Positions 1 through 52,565 are shown, counted from the first letter of the stretch. The stretch is 64,000 bases of DNA from Bacilli bacterium (GCA_045128835.1 JBGVRX010000029.1:51583-115582), one strand, 5' to 3'. The notes: generated from the sequence alone by a model not told the origin. Program-made: numbers and translations.

Positions 1-1426
1 AACTTTTTCCATTATTTTTAATCACTAAATAATCTTCTTCAGAAATTTCTTCTTTACTCCATAAATAATAAAGTGAATCAATTCCTGAATAATAATCAGT
101 AAAATTAACCTCTAGATTAACTTGATTATAATAATTTGTATCAATATAACCATCTTTATTTAAACTAAAACTAGGGGCGTTATTATCAAAGTAAAATATG
201 TAATAGTCACTAACATAATAATTTCCCGTATAATCATAAGCATAATATCTCATACAATAAGGACCATCATTTAAATCAGGACCTAAAATAAAACTAACTC
301 CGTTTTCATAAGCAAAATTATAACTTTGACCCCAATCACAAGTATTATAATAAGGAACTATTATTTGATAAAATAAATTACTTGGATCAATACCACTTTT
401 TGAATCATCAACAGTAATCTTTACTTCAACACTTTTAGCGTATTCATCAATTGATGCAACACTTGTATTTTCTTCATCTACAGTTGGTAATTCAGTATCA
501 AAATAAAATATCTCATCTAATAAAACTATACTATCTGGAAATCTACTATTACAATTAGTTTGACATTGCACTACTGTTTTAAATCTAGCGTATTCATAAT
601 TGATGTTATTATTAGAATCATATAACAAAGTATCTGCTGAATAATAAAATGTAAAGTTACCAAGGTAAGGAGTAAGATTTAATGATTGATTTCCAGAACT
701 TACTGTCTCTACGGCTTCATCTCTACAAATATTATCTCCTACACACACACTATTTGTAACCAAAAAAGTCGGGGCGTTATCCCAAGTTAAGCTAGATGAT
801 ATGTTATTAGACATATATCCTTTAACATAAACATATTTATTAGCTTGACTGAAATAATTGTCTACATATTTCTTACCTTCATTTTCAGTATAGAAAGTAT
901 CAACTAAAAATTGATAACTATAATCTAGTTCACTAGAAACAAACTCAATATCATCAAGTATAATTTCTTCATTACATCCATCATCTATACAAACAAGTTT
1001 GTTACTAAATTTAACATATTCAAAATTAAAACCTTCACTATAATAAGGCATATCTCCATCCCAAAATTGAAAGGAATAGGTTTCACTGCTAAGAATATCT
1101 TGAGGATTTTCTTGTTGATCTTTACCAGTTAAATCAGTTTCACAAAGTTCTTCTTGCCCGCTTACTTTGTAACAAAATTTATGCTCCCAACGATAACTTT
1201 TACCTGTTTCTTCTAAACCTTTTAAAGTTACCGCAAATTGCATTCTTTCTTTTATCACACCATAATCATCTTCCAAAGAATAATAAACAGGAAGTTTATC
1301 TGTTCCTACTTCAACTTCAAAAGTAGAACTAGAAACTTTTTTCGCAGAAACATCTATAGATTCCATGAATAAGGCACAAACAAAAACAAAAACAATATAT
1401 ACAAAATTAAATATTTTCTTCATCAT
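1..1426 (-). CDS. Secreted/cell-surface protein of unknown function. Partial: the C-terminus lies beyond the window start.
   Basis: Manual reverse-complement translation gives MMKKIFNFVYIVFVFVCALFMES..., a signal peptide followed by a Cys-containing, Tyr/Asn-rich region. The ATG directly abuts the stop of the upstream gene (sense TAAATGATG), and a GGAGG RBS lies inside the upstream gene's 3' end. Not in the ORF track because it is truncated. Confidence 0.5.
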   Translation of the reverse strand, partial: MMKKIFNFVYIVFVFVCALFMESIDVSAKKVSSSTFEVEVGTDKLPVYYSLEDDYGVIKERMQFAVTLKGLEETGKSYRWEHKFCYKVSGQEELCETDLTGKDQQENPQDILSSETYSFQFWDGDMPYYSEGFNFEYVKFSNKLVCIDDGCNEEIILDDIEFVSSELDYSYQFLVDTFYTENEGKKYVDNYFSQANKYVYVKGYMSNNISSSLTWDNAPTFLVTNSVCVGDNICRDEAVETVSSGNQSLNLTPYLGNFTFYYSADTLLYDSNNNINYEYARFKTVVQCQTNCNSRFPDSIVLLDEIFYFDTELPTVDEENTSVASIDEYAKSVEVKITVDDSKSGIDPSNLFYQIIVPYYNTCDWGQSYNFAYENGVSFILGPDLNDGPYCMRYYAYDYTGNYYVSDYYIFYFDNNAPSFSLNKDGYIDTNYYNQVNLEVNFTDYYSGIDSLYYLWSKEEISEEDYLVIKNNGKS

Positions 1427-2878
1427 TTACGCCTCCACTTCCATAATTAAATTTATTAAAACTAAATATACAATTAACACGCTTATCAAAATAATAAACA
1501 TTGTTTGAGTATATGGTACAACTATCATCAAACAAGGAATTACAAACCAAAACAAAACGCTTAAAACCTTAAACAAGAAGTAATTCTTTAATTTAGTTTT
1601 TTCTTCATTATCCCCTTTTAATAAATAATACATATCATTTTTCTTTATTAAAGCAGATTGACTTTTAAACCCATAATGATAAATATCTTCAACTTTACCA
1701 CCTAATAAATTAAATAACTTACTAGTATTCAATACTTTAACTTTTTCTGTATAAATAACTTCACTATCATTATTAAATTCAACAGAAATAATTAAATTAC
1801 CATTACTACCACCATATTTTCCTTCTTGACCTTTTCCTTCTATTTCCATTTTAGAAGTACATTTAGTAATGTTATGACAGTCAATTGTTTCTTCTAGACT
1901 ACAAACAGTGTAATCACCATTAAAATACACCATTTTATTCTTATAATTTTTGTTTATAAATAAATACATTTGTTTATCTTCACCATCGTATTTACTATTA
2001 AAAAATTTAAAAACAATCTTTTTATTATTAAAATCAAATTGCTTACTATATCCATCTTCAACAAAACAAGGAACCTCAAGTTTAAAAGCACCAAATTCAG
2101 AAAAATATTCTTTACTAAATCCAAATAAGGTTTCTTCTTTAGTTAAGTAATAATCTACTTCAATAACATCACCATTAATTTTAACATTTTCTTTATCATA
2201 AAAATCAAAAGAAACTTTCAAATTAGACTTAAGATTATTTCCATAGTCATCACCATAACCCTTAAATTCTTTAAAAGAATCATCAACGTAAAAAGCGATC
2301 TTATCTTTTGTTAAGTGATATCCTTTTCCTCCACACTTTTTACAATTAACACTTACTTTGCCTTCTCCTCTACAGATTGGGCACCAAATCATATGTTCTT
2401 TATACTCAACTACTTTTTCACCATTACAAGTTTGGCAAGTAACAAAGTCAACACATGAATCACATTTAACCTTATGAGAATATTCTATTTCATAACGCAA
2501 ATTCAAAAGTTTATATAGATAACTTAATTTAACATTAACTTCAATATCTTTATAACTAGAAACGCTCAAATCTTCTACACTGTTATAATCTATTTCTTGA
2601 ATTTCATTAACTTGATTTTCTTTACTAAAATAATCATACAGGTCATATGTTTTTAAAGCATTTTCTTTCAAAGATTCCTTATCTTCCAGATTATACATCT
2701 TTCGTCTTTGTTCATCTTTTATATTCTCATATGCCTTTATAATCTCTCTATATTTTTTATAAGCATGAATAGATGTGTTAAAAGAAGGATCATACTTTCT
2801 TTTTAAGTCATTGTATGATGTTTCAATTTCTTTATCAGTTGCATCTCTAGTAACATTTAAAATCTCATAACTATCCAT
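1427..2878 (-). CDS. Membrane-anchored DnaJ-like protein. It has an N-terminal J-like domain with a degenerate HPD motif, a CR-type zinc finger (CxxCxGxG x4), a DnaJ CTD-like region and two C-terminal TM helices.
   Basis: N-terminus DSYEILNVTRDATDKEIETSYNDLKRKYDPS aligns with the DnaJ J-domain DYYEILGV...KYHPD, but HPD is replaced by DPS. The zinc finger reads CDSC...CQTCNGEK...CPICRGEG...CKKCGGKG. The segment GKGQEGKYGGSNGNLIISVEF resembles the CTD GDLxVxV motif. A hydrophobic C-terminal tail follows. RBS AAGGAGATGA sits upstream. Confidence 0.6.
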   Translation of the reverse strand: MDSYEILNVTRDATDKEIETSYNDLKRKYDPSFNTSIHAYKKYREIIKAYENIKDEQRRKMYNLEDKESLKENALKTYDLYDYFSKENQVNEIQEIDYNSVEDLSVSSYKDIEVNVKLSYLYKLLNLRYEIEYSHKVKCDSCVDFVTCQTCNGEKVVEYKEHMIWCPICRGEGKVSVNCKKCGGKGYHLTKDKIAFYVDDSFKEFKGYGDDYGNNLKSNLKVSFDFYDKENVKINGDVIEVDYYLTKEETLFGFSKEYFSEFGAFKLEVPCFVEDGYSKQFDFNNKKIVFKFFNSKYDGEDKQMYLFINKNYKNKMVYFNGDYTVCSLEETIDCHNITKCTSKMEIEGKGQEGKYGGSNGNLIISVEFNNDSEVIYTEKVKVLNTSKLFNLLGGKVEDIYHYGFKSQSALIKKNDMYYLLKGDNEEKTKLKNYFLFKVLSVLFWFVIPCLMIVVPYTQTMFIILISVLIVYLVLINLIMEVEA

Positions 2879-2896
2879 CTTATATCATCTCCTTGT

Positions 2897-3883
2897 CTAT
2901 AATAAATCTATAACCTCATTGATTAATCTGATATCTTTATACTTATCTCTATTTTTTAACAAGTATTTTTTTATATCACCTTTGTAATCTTTAAGTTTGA
3001 AAGATTCAAAACAACTTCCTTCAACTTCATCAATCACTACTTTTCCCACATTATATCCTTTTGTTTCTCTACCTATTTCTACAAAAGAATACTCACTAAA
3101 CTCTTTAATAATCTCTTCAATATAAATTTTATTTCCCTCAATTGTAAACTTCTTGCTTTCATCTACAACAAGAATATAATCACTATTTACTAAATTATTC
3201 TCTCTTCCATAAAACAAATTAACTTTGAAATTACTACTTAAAAATTCTTTTTTATCTTCACTTAGTTCTCTTGAATCATCTAGTTTTAAAGCATTCTTTT
3301 TTAAATAATCTTTAATATTTTTATTTATATTATTACTATTAACATCCATTTCAAAATAATATGGATTAGCTTCTAAACTAGTATAATTAAGTGCAATATC
3401 GTCATATCTATTAGACAATTCCTTCTTATATTTATTAATCAATTCTAAGAATTTAAAATCATTATTCCAAACAACAACATTGCTACTATTATTAATTTTA
3501 TTTTCACTAACTAATTCATTTTTTAAAGGATTATAAATAACCCTTTTCATTTCCTTTTTTTCTAATACAGGAATCTTATTTATATTCAAGCAATATTCTC
3601 CAAAAGCACTAAACTTAATATCATTAACTATAATTTCATTAATATCCTCACTATCACTATTATTAATGATAAGACCATTATCTAATAAATCATAAAAATT
3701 ATTTTGATAAAGGTACAACAAAGCCTTAGTTACATCCATATCCAATAAGACTTCACTAATAGTCTTTTTGCTTCCTTGTTTTATGATTTTGATTAGTAAA
3801 AACACAAATAAATCCATTTTTTCTAAATTATAAAGTTCAATTTCACTATTAAAATCACTAAAAGAAACAAAATTAATCTTCAT
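2897..3883 (-). CDS. Hypothetical protein, 328 aa, no recognisable motif.
   Basis: Long ORF, Lys/Asn-rich. Its start overlaps the helicase stop by 11 nt, suggesting translational coupling. Confidence 0.4.
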   Translation of the reverse strand: MKINFVSFSDFNSEIELYNLEKMDLFVFLLIKIIKQGSKKTISEVLLDMDVTKALLYLYQNNFYDLLDNGLIINNSDSEDINEIIVNDIKFSAFGEYCLNINKIPVLEKKEMKRVIYNPLKNELVSENKINNSSNVVVWNNDFKFLELINKYKKELSNRYDDIALNYTSLEANPYYFEMDVNSNNINKNIKDYLKKNALKLDDSRELSEDKKEFLSSNFKVNLFYGRENNLVNSDYILVVDESKKFTIEGNKIYIEEIIKEFSEYSFVEIGRETKGYNVGKVVIDEVEGSCFESFKLKDYKGDIKKYLLKNRDKYKDIRLINEVIDLL

Positions 3884-6800
3884 AATTTATCACCTCACCA
3901 AAATAGTTGTTTGGTTCATCAATCTTGCCTACAACTCTATCATAAATCTCACGATATATTTTTCTAACACTTACATCACTACTGTCATCTAATGCTTCCA
4001 TTTTAATTTTAAGACTTGAAAAGAATGGCTTAGATCCAACAATAATTAACATCTTTCTAGCTCTTGATAAGGCAACATTAATTCTTTCAAACTTCTTAAC
4101 AAAATCTCCAGCTTCAAAAAGAGGATTATTTCTAACAAAGTTAACAATAATAATATCTTCTTCTTTACCTTGGAATTCATCTACCGTAGAAACTTTACTC
4201 TTATTAAAATTCAAAGCTTCAAACTTCATTTTAGAAACTTCTTTTTTCAATTCACTAACTTGATCGCCATACAAAGAAATAACTCCAACACTGCACGCTT
4301 CCTTCATACTTCCTTCATCAATCAAAGCTTTATATCCTCTATCTAAAGTTTTTAAAATTTCTTTAGTTAAATAGATTTCTTCCTCATTATAGAAAGATGT
4401 TGAAACGATACTTCCCTTTTTCTTCTTTCTTTCATAACTTACATTACGATTAACATCATAATGAGAATTAAACCAATATGTATGAATGTTTTCTTCAAAC
4501 AAACTATAAGAGTTACTACTTACATTTAAATAGTGCCTCTTTGCCTCATTTTGTTCTTTTAAATTACCAAGTTTTAATTTATCATCATAGAAAATGTTTA
4601 CGACATCCATTATTTGCTCATGGCTTCTGTATTGATTTACTAACATGTATTTATTATTTCTAGATTTTTTGAATAATTCCTTAAACATACTATTTTCTAC
4701 TAAAGATTCATATTTAGAAAGCAATTCTTTATCACTATCGTCTTTAAACATCTTTTCCTTATATTTGAATAAAGGTGGTAATTGACGATGATCTCCTACT
4801 AAAATAATACTCTTTCCATATAAAATAGGAATTAAAAGTTCTACCCCATTAGCCTTACTAACTTCATCTATAATAACTACATCAAAATCTATATTTTTAA
4901 GTTCAATATCTCCTAACCCCAATTTCTTTAGATACTCATTTTTCTCTTCCAAATACTTAGAATTAGCGTTACATGTAATACTGTAAACATTCGCATTATT
5001 ATTTAGTAAATATTTCGTATATTTTACTTTATCCTTCTCTAGTAAATCTTCCTTGTTATCTTCAATGTATTTAATTACATCCTTATATAAAAATTCATAT
5101 TCCTTATATTTACTTTCTTCTTTTTCAAACTTATTCTTTTCTTGATTTATATAAGAATGAATAACATTTAAGCATCCTTCATCATCCAAAGGTCTCTTGT
5201 TAAAAGAAAGAATATTATTAAAATACTCATCAAAATATTCATCAATTTCTCTAAAGTCTTTTTCTCTTCCCTTAGTCTTATTTGCTATTTGATTATTTAA
5301 CTCATTAATCTCTTTTGATAAGGAACTTCTACTTTCTTTGTATTCATTAACCTTTGAACTATAAACATCTAAACTATTCTTTGCTTCATTATAAAAATTA
5401 TCTAAAGTAGAGATATTCTTGTTTATAAATTTCTTATAATCACTTGCAAACTTTTCGTTATTACTAAAATAAATTTTAAAATATTTTAAATAATCATTAA
5501 AATTTTCATACTCTTCATTTATTTCATATTCTTTTACAAATTCTAATCCTCTAAATACTGACGAAGATAAATAACCTTTGTATTCATTTATATCGTAATT
5601 ACTTCTTCTAAATTCATTTATAAATAACAAATTATTCTTGAAATCTCTAATCTTACTAAGAGAAACACTTATTTTATTATCCAATTCGTTTGCTTTGCTT
5701 TTTACAATATTTCTATTATTAATCAAACTTCTAACTTCTTTTCTTAAATTTAAATGTTTAATAACCTTATCTTTAATTTCTTCATATCTTACAAATGATT
5801 GCTCAACTGTTTTACCATATAAAACAAAGTTTTTCTCTTTGTTCAAATACTTATTTTTCATCTTTTCATAAAAATTATCTACAAGTTTATCTGGCAAATA
5901 ACTCTTATTAGATTTTATCTTTCTTTCACTGTTTACTAATCTAATTGGCAAAACATCTAGTTCATCAGGAAGTCTTTCAATAACATTGTCTATTGCAACG
6001 TGTGTTTGAGATGAAAGTAAAACTTTCTTTCCCATTTTATTATATTGGTAAACCATTTCTGTAATAGTTTGAGTCTTACCAGTTCCTGGAGGTCCTTGAA
6101 GTAAAAAGATAGAGTTCGAATTAATCGCACGATAAACAGCTTCTTTTTGATATTTATCCAAAGAATTATTGCTCCATACAATATCCTCTCTTTTTAAAAC
6201 ATCTTCACTAGTCTCAAACTCACTAATATTGAATAAGTAACTAGCAATACCAGGACTCTTAACATTACCTTCTCTTAAATCTCTTAAAGCTTGTTTTCCT
6301 CTTTTATAAAGTGCTACATCACCACTTAAGATATTAACCAAAACAGGCTTTTCTCCAAACTCTCTAGTAACATATTCATTAACTCTAGCAAAACTAAAAT
6401 ATAAATCTAAATCCTCATCACTCCAGAACTTTGAAAAAGAATAAGTTGCTTCCGTTTCACTTTCACTAACTAACTCTAACGGTTTTAACAAACTACCTAG
6501 TCTTCTAGTTTTAAAACTAAATTCTAATTCGTTATTTCCAACCTTAAGTTCTCCTTTTTCCAAACAATCAACTTCATTAGCTAATTCTATTTCTTGAGAA
6601 ACAAAAAATTGCAAATTGTTGAAACTATTCTCATTCTTTTTTATTCTAACTAGAAATTCTACAGCGATTACACTGTTATATGATTCATCAACCATCTCAT
6701 TTCCATCTACATAAAGATAATTATTACCATCATCAAAATAAGTGACATCCTCATACTTTTTACAAATATTTAAGTTTCTTTTAACCTCTTTTAACTCAAT

Positions 6801-7352
6801 TGCCTTAAATTCTAAAGTCTTATAGAATCCTAGTTTCTTTAAAAAATGTCTTTTTTCAAACTCTAAATAACTTTCAAAATCTCTAACAAAATCTAAACAA
6901 TGATAATCATAAACATTTGGAGTCTCATTAATAATATATCTAACAGTTTTAAGATCGCTCAACGCTTTCTTATAATCATTTTTTATTTTTACATCAAAAG
7001 AAAATTCTTTTTCATATTTTCGCATTTTCTTACTATCGTTTATGTAAATATCTTTAACCTTATAATAACTTTCTCCATCCTTAGTTATTATAAAGTCTCC
7101 AACAAATTGATATAGTTGTCCTTTTGGTCTAATAAAAAAATTTTTGTAAAAATCAAAGTTTATATCTTTTAAAAGTCTTCTTTCAAGACTTGAACATGCT
7201 ACAAAAAAAGTATTTTCTAGCACAACTACTTCTTTAACAAAATTATTCAAATCAACATTAATTTCATCTAAGTATTTATAAAATGATGCTCCTGCTAGTC
7301 TCTTCTTATATTCATCTTTATAAACTTCACTAAAATCAAAGAAAATACCCAT
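3873..7352 (-). CDS. Superfamily 1B helicase of the Upf1/DNA2/NAM7-like family (AAA_11/AAA_12 type). It carries an N-terminal domain of about 400 aa of unknown function and a coiled-coil insertion of about 390 aa.
   Basis: Walker A LLQGPPGTGKTQ (nt ~6085-6115). Walker B VVIIDEVSKA. Motif III VGDHRQLPP. Motif IV QYRSHEQI. Motif V TVDEFQGKEEDIIIVNFVRNN. Motif VI INVALSRARKMLIIVGS. A long heptad-like Lys/Glu/Asn-rich insertion lies between Walker A and B. RBS GGAGGTG precedes the ATG. Confidence 0.75.
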   Translation of the reverse strand: MGIFFDFSEVYKDEYKKRLAGASFYKYLDEINVDLNNFVKEVVVLENTFFVACSSLERRLLKDINFDFYKNFFIRPKGQLYQFVGDFIITKDGESYYKVKDIYINDSKKMRKYEKEFSFDVKIKNDYKKALSDLKTVRYIINETPNVYDYHCLDFVRDFESYLEFEKRHFLKKLGFYKTLEFKAIELKEVKRNLNICKKYEDVTYFDDGNNYLYVDGNEMVDESYNSVIAVEFLVRIKKNENSFNNLQFFVSQEIELANEVDCLEKGELKVGNNELEFSFKTRRLGSLLKPLELVSESETEATYSFSKFWSDEDLDLYFSFARVNEYVTREFGEKPVLVNILSGDVALYKRGKQALRDLREGNVKSPGIASYLFNISEFETSEDVLKREDIVWSNNSLDKYQKEAVYRAINSNSIFLLQGPPGTGKTQTITEMVYQYNKMGKKVLLSSQTHVAIDNVIERLPDELDVLPIRLVNSERKIKSNKSYLPDKLVDNFYEKMKNKYLNKEKNFVLYGKTVEQSFVRYEEIKDKVIKHLNLRKEVRSLINNRNIVKSKANELDNKISVSLSKIRDFKNNLLFINEFRRSNYDINEYKGYLSSSVFRGLEFVKEYEINEEYENFNDYLKYFKIYFSNNEKFASDYKKFINKNISTLDNFYNEAKNSLDVYSSKVNEYKESRSSLSKEINELNNQIANKTKGREKDFREIDEYFDEYFNNILSFNKRPLDDEGCLNVIHSYINQEKNKFEKEESKYKEYEFLYKDVIKYIEDNKEDLLEKDKVKYTKYLLNNNANVYSITCNANSKYLEEKNEYLKKLGLGDIELKNIDFDVVIIDEVSKANGVELLIPILYGKSIILVGDHRQLPPLFKYKEKMFKDDSDKELLSKYESLVENSMFKELFKKSRNNKYMLVNQYRSHEQIMDVVNIFYDDKLKLGNLKEQNEAKRHYLNVSSNSYSLFEENIHTYWFNSHYDVNRNVSYERKKKKGSIVSTSFYNEEEIYLTKEILKTLDRGYKALIDEGSMKEACSVGVISLYGDQVSELKKEVSKMKFEALNFNKSKVSTVDEFQGKEEDIIIVNFVRNNPLFEAGDFVKKFERINVALSRARKMLIIVGSKPFFSSLKIKMEALDDSSDVSVRKIYREIYDRVVGKIDEPNNYFGEVINYED

Positions 7353-7364
7353 CTATAACACCTC

Positions 7365-8714
7365 CTATCTTATAACTTTAACTATAACTTTATTTCCATC
7401 TTCATCTACTACAACGATTTCCTTCTTTTTGTTTAAAGTGACTTTTAAACCACTCTCAAACAAGTTAACTTCTTCAAAAAAGAACTTTTTATAATCTTGC
7501 AAATAAATAACTTTATCTTTTTTACTAACACGAACAGTAACCTTATATACATCATAGTTAAAAGGATTTAATTTAAAAACTGCGCTCTCACATTCATTTT
7601 TATCAAGCATGAATCCTTGTTCTTTAACTTCTACTTCTTTTTCTTCTTCTATATTTTTGGGAAATGACAATGTCAATTTACTCTTATTAAACTCAATTGT
7701 CTTCTTACCATCACTAACTTCATATTTAGTTAATTTAATAGGCATTGAATATAAAACATCATCAATACATTTAAAATCTTCTTCAAAGTAAATTTTTAAG
7801 TATAAGTCTCCTTGCTCTCCACCAAACTTACCATCTAACCCTTTTCCTTTTAGTTTAACAATTTTAAAATTGTTCGCTTCTTCTATTTCTATATACTGAT
7901 AATCTTTATTATTTATTTGTTTATAATAAGAAATGTTTAAACATTTTAAATTACTAGATAACTCTTTTTTATTAATATAAAATCCTGGCATATCTTTCTT
8001 TATAACGACATTTTTATAAACGTCTTTACCCTTTAAAGGAACTAGTTCACTCTCTATACAAATATAAAATGAGCCTTCGTTAATCCCTTGATTTTCAAGC
8101 TTAATTACTTCTCTAGTTTCTTCTCCGCTCGATTTTATTTTTTCAAAACCTTTTATAGTCTCTACATTTTTACTTATTCCTTTTATAATTTCTTCTTTAG
8201 AAAACTTTATTATTCTTTTGTCATAAACATCATTACCAACTACTTCAAAACATTCATAATCATTTATTTGAACTTTGATAAACAAATCACCTTTAATATC
8301 ATTACTTTCTCTTCCTTTTCCTTTTACAGTAATAATATCTCCTTCTTTTAAAGTTGGAGTTAATTGAACTTTAACTTTACCTTTTTTTACTAATTTACCT
8401 TTTCCTTCACATAAAGGACAAATGTTTTTAATAATTCTTTTATTCCCCTTACAGTGATTGCAAATCACTTTATTACCATTAATATTAATAAAACCTAACC
8501 CATTACATTTATCACACTTTTCGTAATATGTATTAAAATTAACACTCTCTACACATTTACAATCTTTTTCTACTTTACTTATAACTTCAACTTCTTTTCC
8601 TTTTAAAATATCCAAATATGAAAAAGAACCTTCATCATAAATATCTAGATTCTCTTTAACATTTAAATTATTCTCATAATTATAATTATCTACAAAAATA
8701 TTATTCTTTTTCAT
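7365..8714 (-). CDS. DnaJ-like substrate-binding module protein with a CR-type zinc finger and two DnaJ CTD-like repeats. It lacks a J domain.
   Basis: Zinc finger CKCVESV...CDKCNGLG...CNHCKGNK...CPLCEGKG. CTD-like motifs KGKGRESNDIKGDLFIKVQIND and GKGLDGKFGGEQGDLYLKIYFEED. No J-domain at the N-terminus. The start overlaps the coaE stop (ATGA). Confidence 0.55.
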   Translation of the reverse strand: MKKNNIFVDNYNYENNLNVKENLDIYDEGSFSYLDILKGKEVEVISKVEKDCKCVESVNFNTYYEKCDKCNGLGFININGNKVICNHCKGNKRIIKNICPLCEGKGKLVKKGKVKVQLTPTLKEGDIITVKGKGRESNDIKGDLFIKVQINDYECFEVVGNDVYDKRIIKFSKEEIIKGISKNVETIKGFEKIKSSGEETREVIKLENQGINEGSFYICIESELVPLKGKDVYKNVVIKKDMPGFYINKKELSSNLKCLNISYYKQINNKDYQYIEIEEANNFKIVKLKGKGLDGKFGGEQGDLYLKIYFEEDFKCIDDVLYSMPIKLTKYEVSDGKKTIEFNKSKLTLSFPKNIEEEKEVEVKEQGFMLDKNECESAVFKLNPFNYDVYKVTVRVSKKDKVIYLQDYKKFFFEEVNLFESGLKVTLNKKKEIVVVDEDGNKVIVKVIR

Positions 8715-9277
8715 TTTAATTCTCCTAGCAATTTTATTATAAAACTATCATCAATATTTTGCCCATCTATTATAAAATCCATTTCTTCCCTGTTATAATC
8801 ATTTTTCATAACTTCTCTTAAATCAAAATATTCATTAGTGATATTATCTCTTTTTATAACTCTATTCTTTCTTGTTTCATATTTAGTGTCTACTAAAATC
8901 TTATAGTCTAGTAAATTCCAATATTTTGTTTGATCTAAAATAATCCAATCTAAAAACACCTTTTTATCTTTGTTTTCTTTTATTATTCTATCTATAATTT
9001 CATTTTCTATTTTTTCTGTATAATCGTAATATTTTTGATATTTAACCTTATCATTAAAAACAATATTCCCTACTTTTTTTCTATCTAAAACTCCATTAAC
9101 TACAACTGAATTATCTTCTACTATTTTTACTATGTTCTCTACTATCTCTTTATCTTTTAAAATATCATGCCCGATTTTATCAATTTCAACATGAATTATA
9201 CCATCATCAAAAGACATCATTCTCCTAATTAAAGATGACTTTCCTGCTCCTGATTTTCCAACAACACCTATAAGCAT
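8711..9277 (-). CDS. coaE: Dephospho-CoA kinase.
   Basis: N-terminal P-loop MLIGVVGKSGAGKSS. Length of 188 aa and collinear similarity to CoaE (IGLTGGIASGKST...VIDAD...LDRKKLG...). A TATAAT-like -10 and GGAG RBS lie upstream. Confidence 0.7.
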   Translation of the reverse strand: MLIGVVGKSGAGKSSLIRRMMSFDDGIIHVEIDKIGHDILKDKEIVENIVKIVEDNSVVVNGVLDRKKVGNIVFNDKVKYQKYYDYTEKIENEIIDRIIKENKDKKVFLDWIILDQTKYWNLLDYKILVDTKYETRKNRVIKRDNITNEYFDLREVMKNDYNREEMDFIIDGQNIDDSFIIKLLGELK

Positions 9278-9308
9278 AATATCACTCCAAAATTATTATA
9301 CTATTAAT

Positions 9309-9334
9309 AAAAAAAAGAAGGAATAATTCCCTCT
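9309..9334 (-). terminator. Putative rho-independent terminator separating the upstream 248-aa gene from the coaE operon.
   Basis: Hairpin AGAAGG-AATAATT-CCCTCT (minus-strand RNA AGAGGG...CCUUCU) followed by a U-tract (A-run on the plus strand at 9309-9315). Confidence 0.4.
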
Positions 9335-9364
9335 TTTAAAGTGTACACAAGTAAAATATATACC

Positions 9365-10111
9365 CTATTTTTTACCTATATTTACTAGTATATATTCAAG
9401 ATAATTTAAAATTTGTTCTTTATCTTTTCTATCTGATGATTTTACTAGATTAGAATAATCATTTAATTCGTCAAAAGAAAGATTTTCATAGTGACTAGAT
9501 ATATATGCTTCTAACGTCTCTATACTTATTTTATCAGGCGCTAAATTATTTAATACAATCACATCTTTCTTTATTTCACTGCTACACTTTAAATAAAAAT
9601 TAGGATCATTTTTAATAAAGGCGCATTGAACTAAATTAGAACAATTGCATAATAATTCTATATCCTTTTTAGCAAGTTCGTATTGAACCTCTTCAGATGC
9701 ATATTCAAGATAAAATTTATTTTTAAAAACTACTTTATTTTGATTTTTTAAAGAAATCAAAGATAATTTTGATGGGTTATCAAAAGCAAATTTCACTTGA
9801 GCATCATCACTAGCGTATTTAACTTTATTATTGTTCTTTTCAATAATTTGAACTTGCAAATCTTCACTTAAAAGATGAAAATTCTCATTATTAACTATTT
9901 GCACTTGAATTTTATAACTTAAAAATTTAATAACCTCTGGTTCTAAATCAGCTAATTCTTTAACAACATTTAGATCTAATAATTCTAACTTTTTTCCCAA
10001 CTCATTTAAAATTAATTCATTATATTTTAGCTCACCAGAAAAAGTTTTCCACTCATCAATAGTAAATCCTTTTTTTAATTTTTTCAATGCAACTTTTTCT
10101 GTTTTTTTCAT
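9365..10111 (-). CDS. Hypothetical protein, 248 aa.
   Basis: Long ORF with no recognisable motif. Internal repeat IQVQIVNNENFHLLSEDLQVQIIEKNN. Lies 26 nt downstream of the 665-aa gene. Confidence 0.35.
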   Translation of the reverse strand: MKKTEKVALKKLKKGFTIDEWKTFSGELKYNELILNELGKKLELLDLNVVKELADLEPEVIKFLSYKIQVQIVNNENFHLLSEDLQVQIIEKNNNKVKYASDDAQVKFAFDNPSKLSLISLKNQNKVVFKNKFYLEYASEEVQYELAKKDIELLCNCSNLVQCAFIKNDPNFYLKCSSEIKKDVIVLNNLAPDKISIETLEAYISSHYENLSFDELNDYSNLVKSSDRKDKEQILNYLEYILVNIGKK

Positions 10112-10137
10112 AATTATTCCTACCTTTATAATGGCTA

Positions 10138-12135
10138 TTATCTTTTGCCTATAACATCTTTATCTGTCGCTAAACTTTCGCTAGAAACTTTCACATCACT
10201 TTCACTTACTTCACTTTGTAATAAATGCTCATTATTTTTCATTGCCAGCTTCATTCTATTTCTCTTTGCAAGTACTGTATATTGTTGCTTCTTTACAACC
10301 ACTATAGGCATCTTCCACCCTTTAGGCTTTAAACCGTTTTCAACACAATACTTAGTAAATGCTTCTGCAGCTTTTGCTTGAACATCACCAATCTCATCAC
10401 TACACAAAATGGCACTTGGAATGGTTTTACCACCAAATTCTTTGCTGTCCTCAAAATCAAATCTATCAATATCAACTTCGTTATAATTGCCCAAAGCTGT
10501 GTTTTTAATTAATTTATCAGCTACCATAAACCTTGCGCTATCACTAACTTCCACATCACTAACTCTAGCTTCCTTTGAACTGTTGATATCAGAAGGACTC
10601 ATAACAAGAATTTTTGCCTTATCAAACAAATAAGTTACTTGGACATCATCACATCCAAACAATTTATTATATTTATTAAATTCTAAATTATTTAAGCAAT
10701 CTTGATTTGTATATGAGCAACAAATGTGTGATGCTCCATTTTCGTATTCAAACCAAGAAGATGCAAAATCTCCTACAACACTATTTCCTGATAACCCTTT
10801 AACAAAATTTGTGGTAGATAAGAACGAGAAATCTGCTCCATCAAAAACATACACCGGAGAGTTAATAGCGGTTCCCTCTATTGTTTTTGGACTTTTAGCT
10901 ACATAAATTCCCTCTTCTAATCCATTGGCTCTTTTTTCAATTGACTCTACAGTCGATATTGTCTTCATCATGTTATTTTCAAATGCCAATGGCAATTTAT
11001 CAACAATATTTAAATAGTTTCCTTCAACAGTATTTCCTCTTTTTTCAAGGTATTCTGCATATTGCAAAAGTTTATAATAGTCTTCTTTAGAAGTAACACC
11101 TTCTGCAAAATCCAATATTTTAATTAGTCCTTTAATACCTTCAATTTCTTCACTTGTAAAAATAGAAGCAACATTATCTTCGTTATTCACAATAGATTCC
11201 ATATCAAAATATTCCTTCATAATTTGAGGTTTATTTTGAGACAAATAATAGGCCCACTTTCTATGTCCCAACATATCTAATGCATAATAGTTTCTAAAAA
11301 TAGCATCTGCTAAAAGGTTGGCAGCCTCTTTGCTGTCTCCTTGTTTCAATGCAACTTCTGCTTTCGTCTTTGCTAGTAAATACACCTTATTTTTGTTTTC
11401 GAAGAAATTATTTAGACCTTTAACGCTATGTACATTATATGGATTATCTATATCCTTAAATATTTCTATTAAAGAACTTTTTTGAACATCTGTAATTTTT
11501 TTATTATTTTTTCTTAAATCTCTAATAAGTGGTTGATATTCCTTAAATTCTCTAACCATTTTTTCAAAATTCACTCTAGAAAAATCTATATTTTTCTCAT
11601 AAAAATGATATAAATATTTAAAATCAGCCATTTTTTCCTTGTCAGTTAAAATGTCTTTAACAAGAATTAAAGAATGTGGTTTCAAATTTAAATTAAGTAT
11701 TTTATTAACAAAATCTTCACTTAAATTATCGAATACCTCTTGATGTAACACATGAATTTCACTAGCATTAAAAACATTAATATTCTTTCTTTGTTTTAAA
11801 ATTTTTACGGCTGATTTTCCAAAATGATTTCCTACAATTTTTAAAAAGGTTTGATGAGTTTTACTATTAATTTGCTCATCATTCATATAATTAAACGCAT
11901 TGGAAACATTACCATTATACTTATTATTTTCCACGCCAAAAATTCCTTTTTCTACATCCTCATTAATAGCGTCTATCAATTTATTTATTTCTTTTTTAGG
12001 AACGGAAGAAATTATTGATCTTTCAAAAAAATTAGCCACTAAAGGGCGTATTCTTTTGTCTTTTATTTTCAATAAATAGTAATTTAATCCAGGGTAATTC
12101 GCATTACTAAAATCAAAAACATTGTTTTTGCTCAT
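10138..12135 (-). CDS. Hypothetical protein, 665 aa.
   Basis: Long ORF with no recognisable catalytic motif. Its C-terminal half contains a Cys/aromatic-rich segment (GASHICCSYTNQDC...GCDD). Confidence 0.4.
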   Translation of the reverse strand: MSKNNVFDFSNANYPGLNYYLLKIKDKRIRPLVANFFERSIISSVPKKEINKLIDAINEDVEKGIFGVENNKYNGNVSNAFNYMNDEQINSKTHQTFLKIVGNHFGKSAVKILKQRKNINVFNASEIHVLHQEVFDNLSEDFVNKILNLNLKPHSLILVKDILTDKEKMADFKYLYHFYEKNIDFSRVNFEKMVREFKEYQPLIRDLRKNNKKITDVQKSSLIEIFKDIDNPYNVHSVKGLNNFFENKNKVYLLAKTKAEVALKQGDSKEAANLLADAIFRNYYALDMLGHRKWAYYLSQNKPQIMKEYFDMESIVNNEDNVASIFTSEEIEGIKGLIKILDFAEGVTSKEDYYKLLQYAEYLEKRGNTVEGNYLNIVDKLPLAFENNMMKTISTVESIEKRANGLEEGIYVAKSPKTIEGTAINSPVYVFDGADFSFLSTTNFVKGLSGNSVVGDFASSWFEYENGASHICCSYTNQDCLNNLEFNKYNKLFGCDDVQVTYLFDKAKILVMSPSDINSSKEARVSDVEVSDSARFMVADKLIKNTALGNYNEVDIDRFDFEDSKEFGGKTIPSAILCSDEIGDVQAKAAEAFTKYCVENGLKPKGWKMPIVVVKKQQYTVLAKRNRMKLAMKNNEHLLQSEVSESDVKVSSESLATDKDVIGKR

Positions 12136-12220
12136 AATAAATCACCCCTATCTATTATCTATATTTTAACACTTACTTTAGGTATTTCCTATTTTTTAAA
12201 ATGTTTTACACATTATTTAT

Positions 12221-12245
12221 AAAAAAAAGTGCTTAATTAGCACTT
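12221..12245 (-). terminator. Rho-independent terminator overlapping the stop codon of the GtrA-like gene.
   Basis: Palindrome AGTGCTTAATTAGCACT preceded on the plus strand by AAAAAAAA, giving a U-tract after the hairpin in minus-strand RNA. Confidence 0.5.
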
Positions 12246-12664
12246 TCTTCAACTTTATTAACTTTTGTTTCAATACTGTCTTTGAATACATAATATCTTT
12301 GATACAAATATTCTGTAGCAAAGTTAAGAACCATTGTTCCTATTAAAATAACATATTCATTAACGTGTGGCTCTAACCACGCTCCTGCTAGTGTTGTAAC
12401 AGGAATAAACACTACATAAAATAACAATGTTTTTGTCATAGCAATAGGAACATTGCTTGCAGATTTAAATGTAAATTCTCTATTTAATGTAAAATTCCAA
12501 ATAACAGACAATACAACTGAAATCAAGTATTGAACCCAATATCCACTCTTAAATACAAGTTCATTTAAAAGTGTAAATGAACCTATTTGAATTATTCCTG
12601 CTGATAAAGAGAACAAAGTAAACTTTATAACTCTCAATAACTCTTTTTTCTTATTTTCTTCCAT
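12233..12664 (-). CDS. GtrA-family membrane protein.
   Basis: 143 aa with four predicted TM helices. The N-terminal LRVIKFTLFSLSAGIIQIGSFTLL resembles GtrA-like proteins. Confidence 0.45.
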   Translation of the reverse strand: MEENKKKELLRVIKFTLFSLSAGIIQIGSFTLLNELVFKSGYWVQYLISVVLSVIWNFTLNREFTFKSASNVPIAMTKTLLFYVVFIPVTTLAGAWLEPHVNEYVILIGTMVLNFATEYLYQRYYVFKDSIETKVNKVEESAN

Positions 12665-21854: not shown

Positions 21855-23012
21855 CTATTTCTCTTCTCTTTTAAAATATTCATTTATTTTTTCTGCTTTG
21901 TCTAATCTTTCATACGGTAAATCCATATTTTCTTTACCAAAATGTCCGCCTCTAGCAAGTTCTCTATAATTTAAGTTAAGTAAATCAAGTGACTTAATTA
22001 TATTACCCGGCTTAAAATTAAAGACTTTTTTAATCATATTACATAATTCCAAGTCACTTACTTTGCCAGTCCCATAAGTGAACACATTAAATGATACCGG
22101 TTCTGCTAATCCTATCGCATAACCAACTTGCACTTCACACTCTTTAGCGTATCCACTTGCTACTATATTTTTTGCTACATATCGAGCATAATAAGCAGCA
22201 CTCCTATCAACTTTAGTAGGATCTTTACCACTAAATGCTCCTCCACCATGTCTTCCTCTACCACCATATGTATCAACAATTATTTTTCTTCCTGTAAGTC
22301 CAAAGTCTCCTCTAGGACCTCCAATAACAAATCTTCCTGATGGATTAACAATTAATCTATAATTATCTTTAATTAAGTCATATTCTTTAAGAACTTCTTC
22401 AACAATGTCTTCTTTAATATATTTTCTAAAAGATTCTTCATCAAAATCATCACTATGTTGTATAGAAACTAAAACTGTATCAACTCTGTTTTTGTCCCCA
22501 TATTCAATACTAACTTGAGATTTCATGTCTGGTCTAGCATATTTAAATTCACCAGATTTTCTTTTTTCTGTTGCTTTTAATAATATTTTATTAGCAATCT
22601 CTAATGTTAGAGGCATATAATTTTTAGTTTCATCACACGCATAACCAAAAATAATCCCTTGATCTCCTGCCCCAATTTCTTCTTTATTTACAGCATTAAA
22701 AATATCACTAGATTGTTCTTTAATTAAAATTTCATACTCTGCATTCTCGCTATCAAAACCATCATCATAACTATTATAACCAATCTCTTTTAAAACATTT
22801 TTAGCAACACTAGCATAATCAACGCTGCCCTTCATTGTAATTTCTCCACCAATTACAACTTTTCTTTCTCCAATCATAACTTCACATGCAACATGCGCAT
22901 TTTTGTCTTGTCTTAAACATTCAGTTAAAATTGCATCACTAATTTGATCGCAAACCTTATCTGGATGCCCCTCACTAACTGCTTCAGACGTAAAAATTTT
23001 ACCTTTTTCCAT
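21855..23012 (-). CDS. metK: S-adenosylmethionine synthetase.
   Basis: [27 protein letters not shown]...[19 protein letters not shown] motifs. The start is trimmed to MEKGK, which has an AGAGGGA RBS. Confidence 0.9.
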   Translation of the reverse strand: [385 protein letters not shown]

Positions 23013-23032
23013 AATTCTTTCCCTCTTTCTAG

Positions 23033-23179
23033 AAAAATAAAACTCCCTTATTAAAAGGAAGTTCACTTCTAGTATAACTCCCTCTTATTGTTCATATCTC
23101 TATGCTTGGGTTAGCACCTTAAATTTTAGGTTGCTCTTACGTTTAACGGTCCCTATACCTACGTAAATCTTAATAAGAG
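23033..23179 (-). promoter_or_regulatory. SAM-I (S-box) riboswitch with a terminator expression platform, upstream of metK.
   Basis: Minus-strand RNA CUCUUAU...UAGGGACCG...GCAACC...AAGGUGCUAA...AUAAGAG, containing the P1 helix, AGGGA box, GCAACC and GGUGCUAA elements. Followed by hairpin ACUUCCUU-UUAAU-AAGGGAGU and UUUAUUUUU. Confidence 0.7.
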
Positions 23180-52372: not shown

Positions 52373-52565
52373 CTCCTCTTTCTTATTGTTTTATAATAAG
52401 CGTAATTACCTTTTCAATAAAAAACCCCTAAACCAAATTTTGGCGCAGGGGAAATAAATCAAGTTTATTTTCACCTCGGCAACCTTATTAAGTCCCTTGA
52501 CCGTTGCTGTCTTTGGTAATTAAGCATCATTATTTTAATAGTTTAATATGTATTTGTCAACTAAA
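52373..52565 (-). promoter_or_regulatory. Ribosomal protein L10 leader (autoregulatory attenuator) upstream of rplJ.
   Basis: An untranslated stretch of about 190 nt. Contains the hairpin CCCCUGCGCCAAAAUUUGGUUUAGGGG followed by UUUUUUAUU in minus RNA (plus strand ~52419-52452). Confidence 0.5.

Follow-up and report, generated by a model that had tools for sequence, protein, structure and literature searches.

A conserved gene cluster in uncultured gut Bacilli joins a Upf1-like helicase to DnaJ-derived proteins and may be a variant of helicase-based defence

Results

A Upf1-like helicase gene is clustered with two DnaJ-derived genes in three clades of Bacilli

A 64,000-nt stretch of the Bacilli bacterium assembly GCA_045128835.1 (JBGVRX010000029.1:51583-115582; hereafter "the window") carries on its minus strand, at positions 1-9277, a tightly packed gene cluster in which a Upf1-like superfamily 1B (SF1B) helicase is encoded between two DnaJ-derived proteins. 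Homology and genomic context suggest that this cluster could be an undescribed, clade-specific variant of a helicase-based defence or surveillance system, a proposal to which we give slightly less than an even chance. We base the defence reading on homology to a five-gene helicase system found elsewhere, an AbiL-like gene pair at the same locus, variable upstream genes, fast evolution, and the precedent of DnaJ-dependent phage sensing. Conservation of the unit in three clades, a hint of dispensability at one locus (L015) and the chaperone theme present in both variants point the same way.

A sequence-only reading of this region had proposed six minus-strand open reading frames joined by overlaps or small gaps. 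We recovered all six at the proposed positions:

8711..9277, minus strand: coaE, dephospho-CoA kinase, 188 aa (TIGR00152, 68.1 bits; PF01121)
7365..8714, minus strand: J-less DnaJ_C-like protein, 449 aa (DnaJ_C, 1.2e-20)
3873..7352, minus strand: Upf1-like SF1B helicase, 1159 aa (AAA_11/AAA_12)
2897..3883, minus strand: helicase partner ("orphan"), 328 aa (without Pfam, NCBIfam or PADLOC match)
1427..2878, minus strand: tail-anchored pseudo-J DnaJ-like protein, 483 aa (PF00226, 8.8e-12)
1..1426, minus strand: surface Ig-like protein with a signal peptide, first 475 codons only, the gene running off the window

The proposed junctions and ribosome-binding sites are likewise borne out by the sequence. 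The coaE and DnaJ_C-like genes share an ATGA (4-nt overlap), and GGAGGTG lies within the 12-nt gap 5' of the helicase gene. The helicase and 328-aa genes overlap by 11 nt, with GGTGAGGTG within the helicase 3' end; AAGGAG lies within the 18-nt gap 5' of the J-like gene, and the last junction, into the signal-peptide gene, is TAAATG. Because TGA serves as a stop in the coaE ATGA overlap, genetic code 11 applies rather than the Mycoplasma/Spiroplasma code. The operon is not complete within the window, as the signal-peptide gene continues past window position 1.

The helicase has 34 full-length orthologue clusters (45-100% identity), all of them metagenomic. Co-occurrence of the genes in relatives had been left as a question by the sequence-only reading, and we found that the four core genes other than coaE do co-occur, in the order DnaJ_C-like, helicase, 328 and J-like and with gaps of at most 17 nt, in three clades (loci of relatives are given L numbers):

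Window clade (L003, L004, L009, L010): helicase ~70% identical (70-72% for L003, L009 and L010); left flank, glp operon; coaE present
Second clade (L001, L002, L011, L012, L016): helicase 47-49% identical; left flank, glp operon; two unknown genes (447-532 aa), no coaE
Third clade (L013, L015): helicase ~53-55% identical; left flank, rpmG and an MBL hydrolase gene; coaE absent

To judge from this conservation, the cluster is a co-oriented unit and not a chance arrangement. Since order and spacing are kept across the clades and the surface-protein gene lies within 2 nt, we take the unit to be the four genes and probably the surface protein. No more than 2 nt separate the J-like gene from the surface-protein gene in the window, L001, L003 and L016, and the surface-protein gene follows at this distance wherever a contig extends far enough.

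The DnaJ-like proteins of the cluster lack a functional J domain

The 449-aa protein aligns to residues 132-324 of the solved DnaJ structure 6jzb. Its DnaJ_C match (Pfam) reflects a DnaJ C-terminal client-binding domain into which a DnaJ zinc finger is inserted, followed by a second region resembling a C-terminal domain (CTD), and its Cys pairs are invariant (n = 4: C52, C54, C67, C70, C85, C88, C99, C102). Neither a J domain nor a transmembrane (TM) helix was found in this protein. The family is confined to the clade, and its next best match is eukaryotic DnaJA2 (1e-8). The 483-aa protein is a paralogue (28% identity over 178 aa, E = 4e-7) that has a J-domain fold in which DPS replaces the HPD motif (KYDPSFN aligned to QYHPDVN). 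HPD is absent from all six J-like orthologues aligned, which carry DPS, DPF or NPE instead. The protein also has CXXC zinc-finger motifs, a CTD-like region, a weak DnaJ_C match and a hydrophobic C-terminal stretch (433-483) that we read as two TM helices.

Against the DnaJ equivalog TIGR02349, which has a cutoff of 377.2 bits, the cluster's two DnaJ-like proteins score 114.1 and 100.4 bits. They are therefore not DnaJ, given that HPD is absent and that scores of 100-114 bits face a cutoff of 377. The helicase had been said to have DnaJ-like partners without a functional J domain, and this proved correct for both, one having no J domain and the other no HPD in any orthologue examined; from these sequences, both DnaJ-derived proteins are predicted to be unable to activate Hsp70. 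Like type I Hsp40/DnaJ proteins, the pair keeps a recognizable J-domain fold, the CXXCXGXG zinc finger and C-terminal client-binding domains. Unlike in type I proteins, these domains are split over two polypeptides, there is no Gly/Phe-rich region, and the genetic linkage is with a helicase gene, not with dnaK and grpE. J-like proteins without HPD include Pam16/Tim16, and the C-terminal membrane anchoring of the 483-aa protein recalls E. coli DjlB and DjlC.

The helicase is intact and related to MkoA

The Upf1-like identity claimed for the 1159-aa protein is upheld by its AAA_11/AAA_12 matches and by solved structures, among which it resembles IGHMBP2, DNA2, Sen1 and Upf1. All ATPase/helicase motifs are intact. 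The protein consists of a beta-rich N-terminal domain (residues ~1-340), RecA1, a coiled-coil-like insertion of ~300 aa, and RecA2. The N-terminal domain is modelled with confidence (pLDDT 85.8), and comparison of this model with solved structures gave no informative match and no nuclease-like or kinase-like fold. The ATPase is therefore the only enzymatic activity that is visible.

Kinship with the Upf1-like helicases of prokaryotic defence had also been proposed, and a strong PADLOC match to MkoA (4.2e-103) agrees with it. The match spans profile positions 442-1094 of 1112, the helicase part only, and leaves unmatched the N-terminal ~180 residues of the protein and the first 441 positions of the profile. 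The NCBIfam names "PLuB" and "ProA" were set aside as sub-threshold, partial helicase matches.

The helicase and its 328-aa partner form the core of a wider system

Outside the clade, the closest helicases can be aligned with that of the window over the full length (32-44% identity), N-terminal domain and coiled-coil insertion included. They belong to a five-gene system consisting of:

an MkoA-like helicase, 1280-1620 aa
a partner protein, 644-1097 aa, sometimes with a Ppx-GppA/ASKHA domain
a protein of 320-420 aa
a ClpB-like AAA+ protein, ~600 aa (TIGR03346 ClpB, NBD2, 1.7e-77)
an NrdG-like radical-SAM protein, ~190 aa

This arrangement occurs in 12 loci (L005-L007, L018-L020, L022-L024, L027, L030 and L055; coordinates for the first three are L005:8001-18521, L006:8001-17253 and L007:8001-19876, the last from the cultivable host Spiroplasma sp. 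SV19), and we found no description of a helicase/ClpB-like/radical-SAM system in the published literature. Its neighbours include Wadjet JetABCD, an AAA_21/RloB pair, Zacharon-like genes and HNH, as well as two integrases, two transposases, Mob_Pre, D5_N primase, WYL, CARF, Cas3c-like and NYN genes. Housekeeping genes are also among them.

The gene downstream of these helicases links the two arrangements. The N-terminal ~170 residues of the 328-aa protein are homologous to the N-terminus of the five-gene partner (blastp 4e-6; hhalign probability 94.5%, E = 8e-8). The label "orphan" was thus apt in that Pfam, NCBIfam and PADLOC searches with the 328-aa protein returned no family match, but not in that it has this relative. 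The 328-aa protein itself gives a confident model with long beta-hairpins; apart from a weak likeness of ~65 residues to winged-helix domains, its overall fold has no match among solved structures.

Helicase-partner adjacency is kept in distant phyla, and on homology the core of the cluster is these two genes, the MkoA/Upf1-like helicase and its partner, found elsewhere in a five-gene system associated with mobile elements and defence islands. Both systems have a full-length homologous helicase followed by a partner with the common N-terminal module, and both include a chaperone-family component. They differ in that the partner in the window cluster is only 328 aa long and is accompanied by two DnaJ-derived genes and a surface protein. 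Neither the window cluster nor any locus orthologous to it has a ClpB-like AAA+ or an NrdG-like radical-SAM gene, and the window cluster also lacks the ~350-aa protein. No DnaJ-like gene neighbours the helicase at any of 80 metagenomic loci. The most economical reading of these gene contents is that a soluble and a membrane-anchored DnaJ derivative, both uncoupled from Hsp70, would serve as the chaperone-family component here in place of the ClpB-like and radical-SAM proteins.

The partner families are narrowly distributed. When GTDB was scanned with a single genome for each species, the 328 family appeared in five species only, each an "uncultured Bacilli bacterium" of faecal origin (human, sheep or other). 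Among 1.84 billion representatives searched exhaustively by profile, 30 proteins were recovered, all clade members or fragments. Search patterns for the 328 family gave no match in JGI metagenome contigs, and the companion helicase scan yielded distant helicases only, among the matches listed. A viral origin was rejected: the 328 family has no relative in 2.9 million viral contigs, and the helicase matches in phage and plasmid collections are weak and partial. A 789-aa 328/J-like "fusion" (P0186, L014:279-2648) was also discarded as a gene-calling artefact in which a TAG stop had been read as sense. The region holds two genes, because the TAG stop followed by GGAGGTG and ATG separates them, and it offers no Rosetta-stone evidence.

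The last gene of the cluster encodes a membrane-anchored surface protein

The last protein had been described as secreted. Its signal peptide fits this description, but the complete orthologues (822-897 aa) are membrane-anchored surface proteins, with Bact_surface_Ig-like domains, a signal peptide, a C-terminal TM anchor and a KRK tail. The window protein is 45% identical to its L003 orthologue, and its similarity to the L001 protein is marginal to undetectable.

Downstream of this gene, and off the window for the source genome (beyond window position 1), all relatives carry an AbiL-like pair directly 3' of the surface-protein gene (L003:18455-20216, L001:15594-17346, L016:18342-20097). The first gene matches AbiLi (5.4e-66), and the second (191-194 aa) is AbiLii/HEC-01B/OLD-TOPRIM-like. 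An M48 (HtpX-like) peptidase gene is next after the pair.

coaE and the other upstream genes are variable

coaE scores above the TIGR00152 equivalog cutoff (68.1 vs 65.55 bits) and matches PF01121 at 7e-14. At the cluster it is present in L003, L004, L009 and L010 and absent in L001, L002, L011, L012, L013, L015 and L016. The gene had been counted as part of the operon and is indeed ATGA-coupled here, but it is a passenger rather than a conserved member because it is missing from two of the three clades. From the overlap, coaE is predicted to be co-transcribed with the cluster in this genome. Two candidate transcription signals lie upstream of it:

9313..9337, minus strand: intrinsic-terminator-like hairpin after the upstream 248-aa gene (11-pair stem, 3 GC pairs, T-run)
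9285..9300, minus strand: possible -10 TATAAT (9300-9295) and ribosome-binding site GGAG (9288-9285), 5' of the coaE ATG

The hairpin corresponds to a terminator that the sequence-only reading had placed here, and it is predicted to delimit the transcription unit on the 5' side in this genome. The TATAAT and GGAG sequences are present as claimed, but the promoter call lacks statistical support. The region holds 85 promoter-like sites against 85.4 expected from shuffled sequence, and because such sites are no commoner than in shuffled sequence, a coaE promoter is plausible but unproven.

Genes for 143-aa GtrA-like, 665-aa and 248-aa proteins separate the glp operon from coaE (window 9365-12664, minus strand); L003 and L010, the closest relatives, lack them at this site. 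Neither the 665-aa nor the 248-aa protein belongs to a Pfam family, and the former has only a weak PADLOC match to Cas5_IIId (4.9e-6). The same position is occupied in L009 by genes for proteins of 138, 167 and 162 aa (LOR-like) and in L001 and L016 by genes for proteins of 507-532 and 447-474 aa. Content between the DUF1667 gene and the cluster varies among genomes.

Cluster genes diverge faster than their flanks and have native composition

When the window is compared with L011/L012, identity is 65-82% for the glp genes of the flank, 47% for the helicase, 31% for the DnaJ_C-like protein, 29% for the 328-aa protein and 28-30% for the J-like protein, and the surface proteins can hardly be aligned. 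Over all comparisons, cluster genes show 28-48% identity and flanking genes 63-82%. The AbiL-like pair is better conserved between L001 and L003 (AbiLi 74%, AbiLii 63%). GC content at third codon positions (GC3) is 0.15-0.18 in cluster genes and 0.135-0.20 in housekeeping genes, and this equality indicates that the cluster is long-resident and not recently acquired. Recent horizontal transfer was accordingly rejected; the lower overall GC of the cluster is due to amino-acid composition.

The L015 locus (L015:13537-14870) has a 328 homologue with three in-frame stops (TAA, TGA, TAA) and a J-like gene with one (TAA); its helicase and DnaJ_C-like genes are intact. The two interrupted genes are probably pseudogenes, which hints at dispensability.

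Discussion

The cluster resembles several defence systems in part. Mokosh combines a COG1112 helicase with a PLD nuclease; its type I form consists of MkoA and MkoB, and type I MkoA carries a serine/threonine kinase domain (Millman et al. 2022, bioRxiv 10.1101/2022.05.11.491447). The window cluster likewise has a COG1112/Upf1-like SF1B helicase core at the centre of a multi-gene operon. In contrast to Mokosh, its partners are DnaJ-derived proteins and a protein without a solved-structure fold match. We found no PLD or MkoB match in the cluster proteins or neighbours, and no kinase family in the helicase (Pfam, NCBIfam). Because it has neither the PLD nuclease nor the kinase domain and resembles Mokosh in the helicase alone, the cluster is not Mokosh. 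Nhi, Hhe and ProA are single proteins that share SF1B helicase motifs with the window helicase, but they carry fused nuclease or other effector domains that are not detectable in the window cluster; the helicase matches the Hhe and ProA models weakly and partially (3.6e-18 and 2.7e-23), far below cutoffs. A precedent for the chaperone component comes from bNACHT25, whose phage sensing needs DnaJ, an indication that client binding of the DnaJ type can couple detection of phage proteins to an immune effector (PMC12169576). That system uses the host's canonical DnaJ with an NLR-like STAND NTPase and has neither dedicated pseudo-DnaJ genes nor a helicase. The sequence-only reading knew of no described system that pairs such a helicase with J-less DnaJ modules. 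Our searches agree, as PADLOC models gave no match to the partner proteins and the literature held no such description; the pairing thus appears to be undescribed.

If the cluster is defensive, the helicase and its partner may form a complex that surveys phage or mobile-element nucleic acids by ATP-driven 5'-3' translocation, as in Upf1-like enzymes. The DnaJ-derived paralogues could act as Hsp70-independent holdases or scaffolds that hold on to the helicase complex or detect proteins that are mis-folded or of phage origin, and they could tether the complex to the inner face of the membrane. The output might be helicase-mediated disruption of invader replication or RNA, or perturbation of the membrane through the tail-anchored protein. 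The physical interactions, nucleic-acid target and defence phenotype in this scheme are ones that we infer. A bolder proposal is that the window cluster and the five-gene family together represent an undescribed class of helicase-centred immune systems, in which a dedicated protein-remodelling module replaces the nuclease. This module would consist of ClpB-like and radical-SAM proteins in most phyla and of DnaJ-derived holdases uncoupled from Hsp70 in the gut Bacilli, where the pseudo-J and surface proteins would link envelope events such as phage adsorption or DNA entry to a cytosolic helicase. We regard this as possible but doubtful.

Several observations weigh against a defensive role. No nuclease, PLD, TIR or protease effector is recognizable in the four proteins, the helicase N-terminal domain included. 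The sequence-only reading had asked whether the genes sit in defence islands, and the answer is divided: the AbiL-like pair adjoins the cluster, but the fixed chromosomal site beside the glp operon in two clades, the native GC3 and the narrow clade do not suggest an island. The cluster appears to have been resident for long and to be inherited vertically, which sets it apart from most defence systems, and we met no clade genome without it, though no proper presence/absence census was made. Confinement to a narrow group of uncultured gut Bacilli counts for an envelope or cell-biology role, and the conserved tight junction with the surface-protein gene fits an envelope role equally well. The contrast in evolutionary rate is not absolute, because the M48 peptidase, likely a housekeeping protein, is also only 38% identical between clades. 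Finally, the in-frame stops of L015 come from a contig of 3.5x coverage.

The cluster could instead be a lineage-specific envelope or cell-biology module, part of the ordinary housekeeping of the clade, in which DnaJ-derived holdases chaperone or target the surface Ig-like protein or other membrane clients and the helicase and partner act on the corresponding mRNA or DNA at the membrane. This would account for the junction of 2 nt or less with the surface-protein gene, the tail anchor of the J-like protein together with the signal peptide and TM anchor of the surface protein, the nearby M48 peptidase, and the fixed, compositionally native locus by the glp operon. Confinement of all three partner families to the clade is also as expected for a lineage invention. 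We nevertheless consider such a module somewhat unlikely. The closest relatives of its helicase-partner core lie in mobile-element and defence-island contexts, and we know of no secretion or chaperone pathway with a Upf1-like helicase. HPD loss uncouples J proteins from DnaK-driven folding, and both DnaJ-derived proteins have lost it. The cluster genes also diverge much faster than their flanks, two of them are probably pseudogenes in L015, and the left flank differs in the third clade.

Two further explanations seem improbable to us. DnaJ-dependent remodelling of helicase-loader complexes is established for lambda O/P-DnaB, and the cluster might be a remnant or domesticated replication or maintenance module of an integrated mobile element, with the DnaJ-derived proteins regulating helicase loading or activity, as in lambda P-DnaB and P1 RepA. 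The variable genes immediately upstream, and relatives of the helicase near integrases, Mob_Pre and D5_N primase, would suit such an origin. However, we saw no integrase, recombinase, replication initiator or repeats in the loci examined, and GC3 is native. The viral contigs hold no 328 relatives, helicase matches in phage and plasmid collections are weak and partial, and to our knowledge Upf1-like SF1B helicases do not serve as replicative helicases. We give equally little credence to the view that the genes have no functional unity and were packed by streamlining of a small AT-rich genome, which would make their spacing uninformative. Almost every gene in the window lies on one strand with short gaps, and even coaE, which is clearly unrelated, is ATGA-coupled to the cluster. 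Yet the four-gene order and tight spacing survive changes of flank and of coaE across three clades, the helicase stays next to its partner in distant phyla, and the two DnaJ-derived paralogues occur only with this helicase.

Were the cluster defensive, it would be the first helicase-based system to have chaperone-derived client binders, rather than nucleases, as dedicated partners; it would point to phage sensing or neutralization through protein handling and would reveal a use for pseudo-J proteins in bacteria. As an envelope-biogenesis device, it would employ a Upf1-like helicase in a way unusual for bacteria. Good structural targets in either case are the 328-aa partner and the N-terminal domain of the helicase, which are modelled confidently without an informative match among solved structures. 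The comparison has also brought to light the recurrent five-gene helicase/ClpB-like/radical-SAM system.

Other features of the window

Almost all genes of the window (1-64000) are on the minus strand, and the GC skew stays strongly negative except over a short plus-strand block at ~57.7-61.8 kb, where it becomes positive. Rfam matches comprise only two elements: a SAM riboswitch (52.8 bits) at 23082-23179 on the minus strand, 5' of a 403-aa gene (21855-23066), and a ribosomal protein L10 leader (72.6 bits) at 52410-52534 on the minus strand, 5' of an rplJ-like gene.

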